64,000 nt of DNA from Acetobacter sp. 46_36 (GTDB lineage: Bacteria; Pseudomonadota; Alphaproteobacteria; RF32; CAG-239), in the NCBI GenBank assembly GCA_001917135.1, contig MNTT01000008.1, forward strand, positions 6,216-70,215, given 5' to 3'. The notes beneath the pieces are model-generated. The model was not told the origin of the DNA. It did not search any database and was given only the letters and a program-made list of their open reading frames with translations. Positions 45,557 through 51,170 of the stretch are shown here, in pieces. Position 1 is the stretch's first letter; every line of letters starts with the position of its first letter. The translations under genes and the position numbers were made by a program.

Positions 45557-47209
45557 ATGGAAAAAGGAATGACGATAGAAACTGTAACCATATTGCTTTA
45601 TATCTGGCTTTCCGTCAGTCTGGTTTTCCCGCTGCTCGCGGTAATTCTGCTGCGCCGCGGCCGGCGGATGAAAGCCGAGCTGGCCAAGAAGGATTTGTCC
45701 AACCGCCACTATGAAGAAATGCTATATGCCTCCAAAGACGGCTATCTGACCCATTCCGTATATAAAAGCAAAGACTATCAGTACTGTTCGCGCCGTCTGG
45801 CAACCATGCTGAATCTGTCCGCCGGCGAAAAAAGTACGTTTGCCAACGTTGCCGCCGCATTTGAACGCGCCGATGCCGAAAAGCTGAACGGCATGTTTAC
45901 CGCCCTGCTCAAAGACGGAAAAAGCTTTGAAACCATCGTCAGGACGCCCGCAAGTAAAGCCGCTCTTTCCGGCAAAACATTCGTCGTCTCCGGCGTGCGG
46001 ATTAACTCCGCCGATTCGCTGATAAACAGCAGCTGCCTCTGGTTTCGCGATATCACGCGTGAAACCGACTTTATTGACCGTGCCACCGAAGACGCCCTCG
46101 CCTGCCGCCGCGAAGTTGAGGACTTTCGCATTCTGATAGACAATCTGCCCAGCCCTGTCTGGCTCCGGGACGAAAGTCTGAACATCCGCATTATGAACCG
46201 GCGTTACCTGAACCTGCTAGGCCTGAAAGACTTCAAAGACGCCACGCCGGAAAACACAATCCTGCGCGACCTCGGCAATGCCACCAATTTGCTGGAACTC
46301 GCCAAAACCGCCCGCGAATCAAACACGCCGCAAAAAAAGCAGATTAACATCTTACATGACGGCGAACTCAAAAAATACGAAATCACCGAAACGCCGTATT
46401 ACGATTCGTCGCTGAAGACATCGCATACTGTCGGTTCGCTGACGGATATCACCGGCTTTGACGAAGCCAAGCGCAGCTATCAGGTACATCTGGACACCCA
46501 TCTTGATATTTTAAGCTCGCTGGATACGGCATTCTGCATCATCAACACCGGACACGAGTTCACCTTTGGCAACGCCGCGTTCCTGAAATTGTGGAACCTT
46601 CCCGAAAACTTTATCGACAACGCGCCGCACTACAACGTTTTCCTTGACCGGATTCGCGAACAGCGGACTTTGCCCGAAGTCTCGGATTTCAAAGCCTACA
46701 AAGACGAAGAGAATAAAGCTTTTGACGCATTGACGGAACAGCGGGAAGACCTGCTTTATATCCCGGACGGCCGCACTTTCCGCCGCATCCGCGCCCCGCA
46801 TCCGGACGGCACGATTATCGCTTACGAAGACATTACCGACCGTCTGGCCGCCGCCCGCCGCCTCAGCGACCTGCTTGCGGTTCAGCGCGGCATTCTTGAC
46901 AACATCAGCGATTCGGTCGTTATCTTCTCGCCTAACCTAAAGCTGAAATCTTACAACGTGGCTTTCCTCAGGCTCTGGGGGCTGGGCGCGGCGGAACTTG
47001 ATGCTTCGCCATACCTGCGCGAACTGCTTGACCTGCTGAAGCCCAAACTGCCGGAACTGGAAGACTGGAACACATTCCGCGAAGACATGCTCAAGCATAT
47101 AACTTCCTGCACTCCTTTCACGCTGAAGCTCCGCAGCAAACAGCGTATTATGGTAACGCCGGTCATCTTGGCGGACACGTCGCTGATGATTACATATCAT
47201 AAGGAATAA
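45557..47209 (+). CDS. membrane-anchored multi-PAS sensor protein lacking a kinase/output domain
   Basis: N-terminal TM segment, then at least three PAS-like units that end in related motifs (MNRRYLNLLGL, GNAAFLKLWNL, YNVAFLRLWGL). No H-box or N/G1/G2 ATPase motifs appear before the stop. Confidence 0.6.
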   Translation: MEKGMTIETVTILLYIWLSVSLVFPLLAVILLRRGRRMKAELAKKDLSNRHYEEMLYASKDGYLTHSVYKSKDYQYCSRRLATMLNLSAGEKSTFANVAAAFERADAEKLNGMFTALLKDGKSFETIVRTPASKAALSGKTFVVSGVRINSADSLINSSCLWFRDITRETDFIDRATEDALACRREVEDFRILIDNLPSPVWLRDESLNIRIMNRRYLNLLGLKDFKDATPENTILRDLGNATNLLELAKTARESNTPQKKQINILHDGELKKYEITETPYYDSSLKTSHTVGSLTDITGFDEAKRSYQVHLDTHLDILSSLDTAFCIINTGHEFTFGNAAFLKLWNLPENFIDNAPHYNVFLDRIREQRTLPEVSDFKAYKDEENKAFDALTEQREDLLYIPDGRTFRRIRAPHPDGTIIAYEDITDRLAAARRLSDLLAVQRGILDNISDSVVIFSPNLKLKSYNVAFLRLWGLGAAELDASPYLRELLDLLKPKLPELEDWNTFREDMLKHITSCTPFTLKLRSKQRIMVTPVILADTSLMITYHKE

Positions 47210-47342
47210 CGGAAAACAAATAATCCTTGCATTCGCGCAGGACGTCATCCATAATATCCGGCAGATATCAGTCCAAGCGGCAGTTGCCGTAAAATGTCGG
47301 CCGCCGCAGCAAAAGCCTTGAAAAGCTCAAAGGAGAAAAGCA

Positions 47343-48293
47343 ATGACGGAACAATTGGCACCAAACCAGAAAAAAATTGTCGACTGGGACAAAAAATCCG
47401 ATTCGGATGCCGAACGCATCAGTAAACGGCTGGAAGGAAGAAGCGAACTGGACGACCGCACGTCCACCGCCAATGACGTTTCTGCCCGCCCGGTTGCTGA
47501 GCGCACTGCCGCTCCCGTCCGGCCGGCGACGCACCCCGCCGCCGCAAACCCTGCCGCTTCACGTCCAGCTCCGGCTGCCGGACAACCGCTGCAGCGCCTG
47601 CGCCAAAAAATTAAAGAAGTTTACGACGATGATGATGACGAAGACGAAAACGCCCCCGGTTTCTTCAATATCAGCCTGCTGGACGAAGAAGAAGCCGAAA
47701 ACGGCGTTCTCCCCGCAGGCACTGTTCCCGACCCGGCCCGCAACGAGTCGGAAACACTGCGCATTACCCGCGAACAGCAACTGGCCGGAAAGCTGGACGC
47801 CATTCTCAGCTCCTCAATGGCCGCAAGAGAAGCCGGGCTGTCCCCCCGCGCTTCCCGCACCGATGCCAGGCTGGCAAATTCGGCAGAATATGATGTGAAA
47901 AAAATCCGCCGTCAAACCTTAAAAGAGAAAATATCCGAACCGCTCGGACTGAAAGGTCATCTCCCTGAAAAAGAGCTTGGCCAAGCGCTTCGCGGTTTGA
48001 AAAATGCCGCCAAAACGCTGGAACCCTCTCTGCACTCAGCCGCATCCCAAGCGCCGCTTTCGGCCGCACCGCTGGCTTCTTTGCAGCGCGAAGCATCAGA
48101 TATCCTGAACGGCCTTCCCGCCGAAACCGCTCCGGAATTGGCGAAAGAAGACGATGAAAAAGCGCTCGCCAGACTGATACTGGAAAAATCGGGACGCGGC
48201 GCCCCGCGAAAAAAATTATCCGAAATTGCCAAAGGGTTGAAGCCATTTAAAAAAAATGAAAATACGGCTGACAACAGCAAAGAAAATAGCTGA
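47343..48293 (+). CDS. hypothetical low-complexity protein (316 aa; Ala/Pro-rich, acidic run)
   Basis: AGGAG RBS. Compositionally biased (PAAANPAASRPAPAAG, YDDDDDEDE). No domain recognised. Confidence 0.5.
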   Translation: MTEQLAPNQKKIVDWDKKSDSDAERISKRLEGRSELDDRTSTANDVSARPVAERTAAPVRPATHPAAANPAASRPAPAAGQPLQRLRQKIKEVYDDDDDEDENAPGFFNISLLDEEEAENGVLPAGTVPDPARNESETLRITREQQLAGKLDAILSSSMAAREAGLSPRASRTDARLANSAEYDVKKIRRQTLKEKISEPLGLKGHLPEKELGQALRGLKNAAKTLEPSLHSAASQAPLSAAPLASLQREASDILNGLPAETAPELAKEDDEKALARLILEKSGRGAPRKKLSEIAKGLKPFKKNENTADNSKENS

Positions 48294-48331: not shown

Positions 48332-48360
48332 ATTGACACTTATAAATCTTTGTGATATTC
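48332..48360 (+). promoter_or_regulatory. sigma70-type promoter with extended -10 (TTGACA-17-TATTCT, TG at -15/-14)
   Basis: TTGACA cttataaatctttgtga TATTCT, ~40 nt upstream of ORF 48401. Confidence 0.6.
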
Positions 48361-48400
48361 TGGACAGTGTTGATAACCTCATAAAACCAAAGGCCAAACT

Positions 48401-48817
48401 ATGGAAAACCAATATTATACGTTAATTGAAAAACAGGACTTTTTCGAAATCATCGAAAACAAGTTCGGCGAACTGGCGGTATTTATTGACGCCCGCAAAG
48501 GCGAACCGGTCAATCCGCAGCTGGAATATGACGGCAAAACCACAGCTTTGCTCAAACGCGACGGCAGGCTCGCTGTCAAGCTTGAAGGCATAAACGCCGA
48601 AACCGGCGCCGTTCTGGCTGAATCCGAATTTGTTATGATTGTAGAACTCTCCGGCGAAACAGTCGAACGCACCTACGGCGTTCCGGTTGAAACGGTTGAG
48701 GAATTTTCATTCAAAGGCCGTCAGACCCGTGCCGACGAACTGGAACGCATTAAAAGCAAACAGGAAATCATTGAAGCGTTTGGCGCCGTTAAAATCTGGA
48801 AAAGCGGAGAAAAATAG
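48401..48817 (+). CDS. hypothetical protein (138 aa), first gene of the EIIA-HPr-methyltransferase operon; paralog of ORF 40572..40940
   Basis: A promoter lies at 48332..48360. Its stop abuts the EIIA start. No Walker A motif, so it is not HprK. Confidence 0.6.
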   Translation: MENQYYTLIEKQDFFEIIENKFGELAVFIDARKGEPVNPQLEYDGKTTALLKRDGRLAVKLEGINAETGAVLAESEFVMIVELSGETVERTYGVPVETVEEFSFKGRQTRADELERIKSKQEIIEAFGAVKIWKSGEK

Positions 48818-49216
48818 ATGATAGGAATAGTATTGGTAACCCATGGCCGGCTGGCTGACGAATTTCTGTCTGCCATGCAGCACATTGTCGGCCCTCAGAA
48901 TCAGATTGCCACCGCCTGCATCGGCCCCAATGACGATATGAACGAACGGCGCAACGACATCTTAAACAAAGTTCAGGCGGTTGACAGCGGCGACGGGGTC
49001 ATTGTTTTGACCGATATGTTTGGCGGTACGCCGTCCAACCTTGCCATTTCGATTATGGACCGTGCCAACATTGAAGTTATCGCCGGCATAAATCTGCCGA
49101 TGCTCGTCAAACTCAATACGCTGAGAAAAGAAAAAGGGCTGAAGGAGGCCGTTACCGGCGCCAAAGAAGCCGGCATCAAATATATAACTATCGCGTCTGA
49201 ACTGCTGGGAAAATAA
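48818..49216 (+). CDS. PTS EIIA component, mannose family (regulatory EIIA-Man-like)
   Basis: MIGIVLVTHGRLADEF with the phospho-acceptor His near residue 9-10. 132 aa. GGAGA RBS. Confidence 0.85.
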   Translation: MIGIVLVTHGRLADEFLSAMQHIVGPQNQIATACIGPNDDMNERRNDILNKVQAVDSGDGVIVLTDMFGGTPSNLAISIMDRANIEVIAGINLPMLVKLNTLRKEKGLKEAVTGAKEAGIKYITIASELLGK

Positions 49217-49217
49217 A

Positions 49218-49496
49218 ATGAGCGACACCATTTCTGTAGAACTTGAAATCATTAACGAACGCGGATTGCATGCCCGTGCCGCCGCCAGTTTCGTCAAAAC
49301 GATTGACGGGCTGAACGCCGACGTGCAGGTTGAACGTCTGGGACAGGTTGTAGACGGCAATTCGATTATGGGGCTGATGATGCTTGCCGCCGCCAAAGGC
49401 ACCAAAATTAAGGTTTCCGCCGCCGGAACAGACGCCGAAACCGCCATCGCCAACATTACCCAACTTGTCAACGGCAGATTCGGCGAAGATAGATGA
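49218..49496 (+). CDS. ptsH: HPr-family phosphocarrier protein (HPr/NPr)
   Basis: NERGLHARAAASFV contains the active-site His. 92 aa. Starts 1 nt after the EIIA stop. Confidence 0.85.
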   Translation: MSDTISVELEIINERGLHARAAASFVKTIDGLNADVQVERLGQVVDGNSIMGLMMLAAAKGTKIKVSAAGTDAETAIANITQLVNGRFGEDR

Positions 49497-50554
49497 CGCA
49501 AACGCCCGACACCCTTGCCGATACTCTTACTGCGCTTTCTCCCGCTCAGCCAACGCCCTCCGCAGTTTCTCTCTCAACCTCCCGGAAAAGAGGCCGCAGC
49601 CCTGCCGCATCCCCTGCCGCGGCAGCCAAAGCACCGGCACCGCGCAACAAGACCATCACGTTGACAGAACCGGAAATCTCCGAATATTCTTCCCGTGCCA
49701 TATCCCTGAAAGGCAAAGCTGCCCTGCGCGACATCATTGACAAAACGATTTGGCAGGACACTTTTGAAGCTCTTAAATTTCTCCCCGCCAACTTTGCCGA
49801 TTTGGTGGTCGTCGACCCGCCGTACAACCTGACCAAAAAATTCGGCACCAAAGAATTTAAGTCCATGGACTGGAACGACTACAAGCGCTGGATGGACAAG
49901 TGGCTCGCGGAAGTCTTTATCTCGCTGAAACCCAACGGCAGCCTGTACATTTGCTCGGACTGGAACACGTCTATCGCCGTTCCCGAAATCGCCGGCAAAT
50001 ATTTTCTTCTGAAAAACCGCATCACTTGGGAACGGGAAAAAGGCCGCAGTTCAGGCAATAACTGGAAAAACTGTATTGAAGACGTCTGGTTTTTTACCAA
50101 ATCTTCCGAATACACTTTCAATCTGGATGCCGTTAAGCTGAAGCGCCCGGTTCTCGCCCCGTACAAAGACGGCAACGGCATTCCCAAAGACTGGCAGGAA
50201 GACGAAGAAATTGAAGGGGGAAAATACCGGCTGACTGCGCCGTCCAATCTGTGGACGGACATTTCCATCCCGTTCTGGTCTATGGCCGAAAACACGCCCC
50301 ATCCCACCCAAAAGCCGGAAAAGCTGATAGCCAAGCTGATTTTGGCCTCCAGCAACGAAGGCGATGTCGTTTTTGACCCTTTCCTCGGCTCCGGTACCAC
50401 TTCGGTAACCGCCGCCAAGCTCGGCCGTCATTATGTCGGCATTGAACGCGAAAAAGAATACGTAGCCCTTGCCGAAAAGAGGCTTGAAATGGCACAAACA
50501 GACAAGACCATTCAGGGATACGAAAACGGCGTATTCAAACTTCGCCACGCCTGA
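49493..50554 (+). CDS. beta-class DNA methyltransferase (N6-adenine or N4-cytosine; CcrM/HinfI-like), apparently orphan
   Basis: Motif IV VVDPPYNL precedes motif I DPFLGSGTT, with HPTQKPEKL between them. Has an ~80-aa Ala/Pro/Ser-rich N-terminal extension. The start overlaps the ptsH stop (ATGA). Confidence 0.85.
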   Translation: MTQTPDTLADTLTALSPAQPTPSAVSLSTSRKRGRSPAASPAAAAKAPAPRNKTITLTEPEISEYSSRAISLKGKAALRDIIDKTIWQDTFEALKFLPANFADLVVVDPPYNLTKKFGTKEFKSMDWNDYKRWMDKWLAEVFISLKPNGSLYICSDWNTSIAVPEIAGKYFLLKNRITWEREKGRSSGNNWKNCIEDVWFFTKSSEYTFNLDAVKLKRPVLAPYKDGNGIPKDWQEDEEIEGGKYRLTAPSNLWTDISIPFWSMAENTPHPTQKPEKLIAKLILASSNEGDVVFDPFLGSGTTSVTAAKLGRHYVGIEREKEYVALAEKRLEMAQTDKTIQGYENGVFKLRHA

Positions 50555-50701: not shown

Positions 50702-50880
50702 GAATTTAATAGATATTAAGTTTAGGGCGTCAGAATCCCTTAAGCAGTCAGTCCGCAGCAGGACAAAATAAATATGCCACGTTCGGACGGATGTCGACGA
50801 ATAAGAGCTTCTCAAATAAGTCGAGCCGTCAATTGCTTACGGTTTCTGAACATCCGCCCGCCTTTGCGGGCTTTTTATTT
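50702..50880 (+). ncRNA. candidate small RNA (~180 nt), family unknown
   Basis: Bounded by the promoter-like element at 50667..50695 and the terminator at 50856..50880. Contains only a 10-codon ORF without an RBS. It could instead be a long 3' UTR of the methyltransferase operon. Confidence 0.3.
50856..50880 (+). terminator. intrinsic terminator
   Basis: gcccgc-cttt-gcgggc followed by tttttatttt. Confidence 0.75.
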
Positions 50881-51170
50881 TCCCTCTCTTCTTTCCGCTC
50901 ATCGCCAATATATCCGTTTTTCGAAGTGCGTTTATCTGCATGCATTCTTTCTGATCACTCCTCGTCTGTTTCTATTGCCCTACTGTCCGCCCCTACAGCC
51001 CGTTCCCATCTGTTCCTATCGTCCGACTGCCCGCCCCTTTAGCAGCTGCCCGTCTGCCACTCACGGGTCATCCTCTCCCAACGATACAAACTCCCTCAAA
51101 CGGTACAAACTCTCCCAAACGGCACAACCTCCCCCAAACGCCTGATACATTTATTCTGCCCCCAACATTC
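50881..51170. repeat. C/T-rich degenerate repeat tract in the long methyltransferase-ftsH intergenic region
   Basis: Recurring ctgtccgccc/ctgcccgccc and caaacggtacaaactc(t)cc motifs. No ORF with an RBS. Confidence 0.5.

Follow-up and report, generated by a model that had tools for sequence, protein, structure and literature searches.

A putative four-gene operon places an apparently solitary DNA methyltransferase directly behind the regulatory phosphocarrier HPr in uncultured Alphaproteobacteria

The DNA analyzed here (the window) is a stretch of 64,000 nucleotides (nt) from contig MNTT01000008.1 of Acetobacter sp. 46_36, referred to below as contig C13 of the window genome (G000), a 1.9-Mb assembly that is 100% complete and whose nearest public relative is an entry labelled "uncultured Rickettsiales bacterium UMGS1453." Within it, four co-directional genes on the forward strand place a DNA methyltransferase directly behind two components of the phosphotransferase system (PTS). 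The first encodes an acidic conserved protein of 138 amino acids (aa) without a family match, here called unk138 (positions 48401 to 48817), and is followed by genes for an EIIA-Man of the ptsM/manX type (48818 to 49216), an HPr/NPr phosphocarrier of the ptsO/ptsH type (49218 to 49496), and a predicted beta-class, N6-adenine-type DNA methyltransferase (49493 to 50554). The TAG stop codon of unk138 abuts the ATG of EIIA-Man at 48818, a single nucleotide separates EIIA-Man from HPr, and the TGA of HPr and the ATG of the methyltransferase overlap as ATGA (49493 to 49496).

A sigma-70-type promoter is predicted ahead of unk138 at 48333 to 48361 (+ strand), where TTGACA, a 17-nt spacer, and a TG-extended TATTCT form the best promoter-like match of the region. 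Across 17 species of the genus, neither the -35 hexamer nor the conserved positions of the extended -10 (TGnTA...T) vary, within flanks averaging 60% identity. A scan for terminator-like sites found none within the four-gene cluster; the first, a hairpin followed by a T-run, lies downstream at 50856 to 50881 (+). A preliminary description of the window, made from the sequence alone, had proposed a TTGACA-17-TATTCT promoter before four tightly packed genes, and both its gene coordinates and the three gene junctions agree with the open reading frame list and the sequence.

In the order, 101 genomes from 19 genera were sampled. In each of them HPr occurs once and the methyltransferase has exactly one close homologue (53 to 92% identity), which lies directly behind HPr in 87 of the 101. 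The order PAS-only protein, acidic protein, unk138, EIIA, HPr, methyltransferase was kept in all 20 genus loci inspected, and unk138-EIIA-HPr-methyltransferase was present, usually followed by ftsH, in all 61 alphaproteobacterial loci taken from public genomes. The arrangement is far beyond chance: it recurs at every locus inspected in the genus or taken from public genomes and in most genomes of the order, and is not unique to one strain. The two genes that head this order (45557 to 48293, +) encode a membrane protein of 550 aa with PAS domains only and an acidic low-complexity protein of 316 aa; their synteny extends through the genus and much of the family, and the 107-nt gap that holds the promoter divides them from the four-gene cluster.

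The junction between HPr and the methyltransferase was compared at 35 loci from many genera. The distance from the HPr stop to the methyltransferase start was -4 nt in 17, 0 in 8, -1 in 3, and +2 to +6 in 6, with one unresolved; that is, 34 of the 35 junctions fall within -4 to +6 nt, and stop and start codons overlap in 20. Within the genus, 19 of 20 loci share the ATGA overlap, and the methyltransferase is the more conserved of the two proteins, at 84 to 92% identity compared with 66 to 80% for HPr.

Both PTS proteins were readily assigned. EIIA-Man matches PF03610 at 108.6 bits (cut-off, 21.4; E = 2.6e-31), and its VTHG aligns with the ITHG of the solved IIA-Man 3LFH, marking the active-site His. 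HPr matches PF00381 at 90.1 bits (cut-off, 23; E = 9e-26), and alignment to HPr proteins of known structure places the His of GLHARAA at the phosphorylatable His15 and the Ser of NSIMG at the regulatory Ser46. Each is encoded once in the genome, in this window, which rules out the locus as a degenerate duplicate; the canonical hprK-EIIA-npr locus elsewhere that the preliminary description had considered does not exist, the only EIIA-Man/HPr pair being the present one. The remaining components lie on other contigs. A gene for a 141-aa single-domain HprK with the P-loop GKSGSGKS is located at C11:274137-274559, where it directly follows tsaE and precedes mlaEF, and all 41 genomes of the order that were examined for hprK carry it. 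Enzyme I (EI), with an open frame of 746 aa, is encoded on C2 and EIIA-Ntr on C6. The statement that HprK is missing thus holds for this locus and not for the genome, and the genome-wide search that had been suggested for hprK, ptsP/ptsI, and a further ccrM located all three, on C11, C2, and C12, respectively. Taken together, the PTS genes constitute the complete regulatory nitrogen PTS (PTS-Ntr) of alphaproteobacteria, with hprK unlinked.

The locus does not have the classical cluster layout, in which hprK stands directly upstream of ptsM-ptsO and downstream of chvIG. Upstream of EIIA-HPr lie unk138, the acidic protein, and the PAS-only protein, with no two-component genes. As the preliminary description had noted, a protein without a P-loop takes the place of HprK: unk138 is found at the position that hprK occupies in the sister family and in classical alphaproteobacteria (PMC9491525). 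It was considered as HprK/P and rejected, as it has no Hpr_kinase_C match and no GxxGxGKS motif and the true HprK is on C11. Searches of Pfam (at E = 10, bar a chance PepSY match), NCBIfam, PADLOC, and PHROGs returned no family for unk138, and its AlphaFold2 model (mean predicted local distance difference test score, 70.8) had no fold match in the PDB (best E = 0.55; template modeling score below 0.25). Its mean column identity across genera is 79%, and in the family of the window genome (f1) it is always located upstream of EIIA-HPr. What can be said of unk138 is that in family f1 it is a constant companion of EIIA-Man and HPr; it is not a kinase. A paralogous relationship with a 122-aa protein at 40572 to 40940 was considered too marginal to retain (a 40-residue block; pairwise E = 0.001). 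A clearer, shorter paralogue is located at C10:494069-494350, with approximately 35% identity over residues 9 to 102, and such a shorter copy occurs in nearly every genome of the genus, so that unk138 is one member of a small family. One other alphaproteobacterial genome (G027) contains nine matches to unk138 (E <= 0.001; approximately 23 to 36% identity), at least two of which are broken by stop codons.

The methyltransferase matches PF01555 at 158.9 bits (cut-off, 26.7; E = 2.4e-46). The motif VVVDPPYNL precedes FDPFLGSGTT, the beta-class order in which motif IV is N-terminal to the S-adenosylmethionine-binding motif I, and a DPPY motif favors N6-adenine as the target. The enzyme is predicted to be a beta-class N6-methyladenine (m6A) methyltransferase of the type found in restriction-modification systems. 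Four PF01555 genes are present in the genome: that of the window, one for CcrM on C12, one for an SPPY-type enzyme, and one for a 646-aa Mod-like enzyme. The C12 protein (368 aa) aligns to positions 3 to 348 of the 350 in the CcrM model at 589 bits and includes the CcrM C-terminal domain, and each of the 41 genomes of the order that were examined for CcrM encodes a separate canonical copy. The window enzyme scores 114.6 bits against the same model (NF050803; cut-off, 830), in two stretches only, and lacks the C-terminal domain of approximately 80 aa. It is thus not CcrM. Among solved structures its best relative is the orphan methyltransferase M.BceJIV (8URK; 121 bits over residues 95 to 332), followed by MboIIA, CcrM (6PBD, short C-terminal stretch only), DpnA, and RsrI. 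The top PADLOC model was Type II methyltransferase, at 220 bits. Its direct neighbors are HPr and ftsH, and no nuclease gene was found beside it, either here or at the inspected loci of relatives from this order and from five other phyla.

Outside the order, full-length homologues (56 to 60% identity) were identified in Ignavibacteria, cyanobacteria, Chloroflexota, Planctomycetota, and others, and only 7 of approximately 149 other alphaproteobacterial families sampled carried one. PTS genes were never found next to these homologues, in either the other alphaproteobacterial families or the other phyla examined; in the other phyla the neighbors are housekeeping genes (metG, a peptidyl-prolyl isomerase gene, nadE, nrtR, and others) with no nuclease. 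In a tree of the methyltransferases, the HPr-linked type and the copy from a sister-family genome (G025) form one clade, with a Shimodaira-Hasegawa-like approximate likelihood ratio test (SH-aLRT) support of 99; the root falls on a very long branch, and the direction of transfer is not fixed by the tree. Judged from this distribution and branching, the family appears to be a horizontally mobile restriction-modification type that became fixed in this order as a solitary core gene beside the vertically inherited CcrM.

Two solitary enzymes invite comparison with that of the window. M.BceJIV of Burkholderia cenocepacia is an orphan m6A methyltransferase that modifies GTWWAC (PMC11380664); like the window enzyme, which itself appears to be solitary, it is beta-class, has DPPY before FxGxG, and is of similar size. 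However, the two are only distantly related, no PTS linkage is described for M.BceJIV, and the window gene belongs to the core gene set of an entire order. CcrM of Caulobacter (GANTC, cell-cycle; 6PBD) is likewise of the beta-class N6-adenine type and conserved across an alphaproteobacterial lineage, in its case as an orphan, and it differs in the model match and C-terminal domain described above.

For the PTS part, the closest known system is the chvIG/bvrRS-hprK-ptsM-ptsO(-ahcY-divL-tsaE) operon of Brucella and Sinorhizobium (PMC2937029, PMC9491525), which has the same adjacent EIIA-Man and HPr/NPr in a regulatory PTS without a permease; EI-Ntr, EIIA-Ntr, and a short single-domain HprK are likewise present in the window genome. 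In contrast to that operon, the locus described here has no upstream two-component genes, hprK has moved to a different contig, where it adjoins tsaE, its former position is taken by an unrelated 138-aa protein, ahcY has been lost, and a DNA methyltransferase comes straight after HPr. The order bvrR-bvrS-hprK-x-ptsM-ptsO-x-ahcY-x-divL-tsaE was established as an operon by reverse transcription-PCR in Brucella, and other Alphaproteobacteria show synteny with it (PMC9491525). The sister family retains the hprK-EIIA-HPr-ahcY part: the one sister-family genome sampled, G025, a metagenome-assembled genome (MAG) that is 79% complete, carries hprK, EIIA, HPr, ahcY, a spacer, and the methyltransferase on one strand, in agreement with the Brucella-type order (PMC9491525). 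In G025 the methyltransferase and HPr each match as two pieces in different frames (L131 2849-3962 and 6754-7181), for which frameshifts or assembly errors are possible causes.

No ahcY was found in the window genome or in 39 other members of family f1 that were searched (0 of 40), all of which are at least 99% complete. The window genome contains two PNP_UDP_1 genes, which could include an S-adenosylhomocysteine nucleosidase. The adjacency most likely arose by genome reduction: from an ancestral order hprK-EIIA-HPr-ahcY-...-methyltransferase, ahcY and the spacer would have been deleted, joining the downstream methyltransferase to ptsO. Other parts of the ancestral operon may persist elsewhere in the genome. 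At C11:274137-275240 (L010 8135-9242) tsaE is followed by hprK, and at 44515 to 47209 of the window tsaB is divergent from the PAS-only membrane protein of 550 aa; these two loci look like scrambled remnants of a Brucella-type operon. In Brucella, divL and tsaE share the operon with hprK-ptsM-ptsO (PMC9491525), and the PAS-only protein may be a candidate truncated DivL.

On balance, we favor a reading in which these genes form a four-gene operon with one sigma-70 promoter, the methyltransferase is co-expressed with HPr, and the two became adjacent by genome reduction. A single transcript spanning unk138-ptsM-ptsO-methyltransferase would start at the conserved promoter. There is no room for a separate promoter at the junction of HPr and the methyltransferase; ribosomes terminating on HPr would re-initiate on the methyltransferase, with the last HPr codons (G-E-E/D) supplying a purine-rich ribosome-binding site. 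The PTS part would be an ordinary regulatory PTS-Ntr with EI-Ntr, EIIA-Ntr, and a short HprK encoded elsewhere, and the methyltransferase a solitary core gene of the order, additional to the canonical CcrM. In practice, expression of the methylase would keep pace with that of HPr. A direct mechanism between phosphotransfer and methylation is not required by this reading. The identities of the genes, their catalytic motifs, the conservation of promoter and junction, the distribution, and the alternative locations are observed; from them we infer the co-transcription, the translational coupling, the m6A activity on DNA, and the origin by deletion.

The linkage has exceptions, and these weaken the case for a functional coupling of phosphotransfer to methylation. 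In 14 of the 101 genomes of the order, the methyltransferase is located away from HPr. Thirteen family f1 genomes retain unk138-EIIA-HPr as a three-gene unit; in two of these HPr is followed directly by ftsH, an empty site, and in most others by convergent genes. The unlinked methyltransferase is of a more divergent type (53 to 57% identity) with unrelated housekeeping genes as neighbors: serine dehydratase, uvrA, bipA, a NUDIX gene, and tsaB. In a tree of unk138, EIIA, and HPr, the unlinked genomes were scattered among the linked ones, and the well-supported branches can be explained only with three or more changes of state. It follows that linkage to HPr is dispensable, whereas possession of one such methylase is not. 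Other points weigh against the favored reading itself. The deletion scenario is drawn from a single sister-family MAG of limited completeness, and copies from other phyla branch between the HPr-linked and unlinked types in the methyltransferase tree; a replacement or insertion event, instead of a deletion, is possible from these sequences. In addition, a promoter may be located inside ptsM or ptsO, and selection for coupled expression could be what has kept the junction so constant in many genera. Beside the unlinked-type methyltransferase of one relative (G111; L123 2082-2654) lies a gene for a 190-aa protein of the phospholipase D family (PLDc_2), a candidate nuclease partner.

A stronger proposition, close to what the preliminary description had hinted at, is true regulatory coupling, in which the state of PTS-Ntr governs how much methylase is made or how active it is, for example through binding or phosphorylation by phosphorylated HPr or EIIA-Man or through stoichiometric co-translation, so that methylation follows carbon and nitrogen status. 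The near-constant junction in many genera and the stronger conservation of the methyltransferase than of HPr fit this idea, as does the ancestral ptsO neighbor: the enzyme encoded by ahcY removes the product inhibitor of methyltransferases. There is also a genetic link between PTS-Ntr and CcrM in Caulobacter, where all evolved delta-ccrM suppressor lines had a mutation in ptsP or hprK that raised ftsZ transcription (PMC4551980). However, that link concerns CcrM, a separate gene here; HPr ends a three-gene operon in the unlinked genomes, with their repeated switches; homologues outside the order have no PTS association; no interaction domain is evident in the methyltransferase; and the loss of ahcY would account for the adjacency by a plausibly neutral origin. 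We consider such coupling improbable. Its most specific form, a nutrient-gated epigenetic module in which the PTS-Ntr state (the P~His/P~Ser ratio on HPr, or EIIA-Man) directly sets a second genome-wide adenine methylase, seems more doubtful still.

It is likewise improbable that the arrangement has no consequence for expression, with a promoter of its own within ptsM or ptsO driving most transcription of the methyltransferase, its translation independent, and the spacing reflecting only gene packing. The genomes are small (1.3 to 1.9 Mb) and densely packed, nine promoter-like hexamers were found inside coding sequence of this region where 3.4 were expected, and the junctions vary in start codon (ATG, GTG, or TTG) as well as in spacing. 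Yet the upstream promoter is invariant, and an overlap of stop and start codons, the classical signature of coupled translation, occurs in more than half of the loci. Among internal sites only TTGACA at 49661 is strong, and it lies 3' of the methyltransferase start (at residue 57, where the N-terminal coding sequence is conserved) and is not shared by relatives; it is therefore not a credible internal promoter. Least probable by far is that the enzyme supplies the modification activity for a restriction-modification or other defense system whose nuclease is encoded elsewhere, protecting rather than regulating the genome: the PADLOC match, the patchy distribution across phyla, and the neighboring PLD-family protein in one relative would agree with such a role, but no adjacent nuclease was found at any of the loci inspected, and a single copy in 101 of 101 species is unlike the strain-variable genes of restriction-modification.

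A literature search found no published description of this operon. Dam and CcrM exemplify the orphan adenine methylases, which are master regulators whose means of sensing physiology are largely unsettled; here an apparent second one, present throughout an order, is probably wired into the expression unit of a regulatory PTS, in widespread uncultured alphaproteobacteria of the gut and rumen. If the linkage is functional, nutrient signaling would be connected to the epigenome. If it is not, the locus would clearly illustrate how genome reduction can make a mixed operon and how a methylase of restriction type can be domesticated into the core genome. Were the nutrient-gated module true, DNA methylation would be a read-out of carbon and nitrogen supply in gut alphaproteobacteria, and the locus would be a physical counterpart both of the genetic interaction between the PTS and CcrM in Caulobacter and of the ancestral ptsO-ahcY linkage.

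The N terminus of the methyltransferase carries a Pro/Ala/Ser-rich insertion of 43 codons (49508 to 49636, +; residues 6 to 48), identified by comparison with species of the genus, which contains the AT-hook-like RKRGRSP. Only the window species and its closest relative (L013) have the insertion, and the other 18 species of the genus read MxxTPAPRNKT; the TTGACA at 49661 is located just 3' of it. Downstream of the operon, no terminator was found right behind the methyltransferase, as the 146 nt 3' of its stop codon fold no better than shuffled sequence (z = +1.1). A search for known RNA families in the region returned a single, sub-threshold match, to sRNA-Xcc1 (RF02221) at 50785 to 50867 (+), at 32.4 bits compared with a gathering score of 53 (E = 0.007). 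This match ends in the terminator-like hairpin at 50856 to 50871, inside the 750-nt gap that precedes ftsH.

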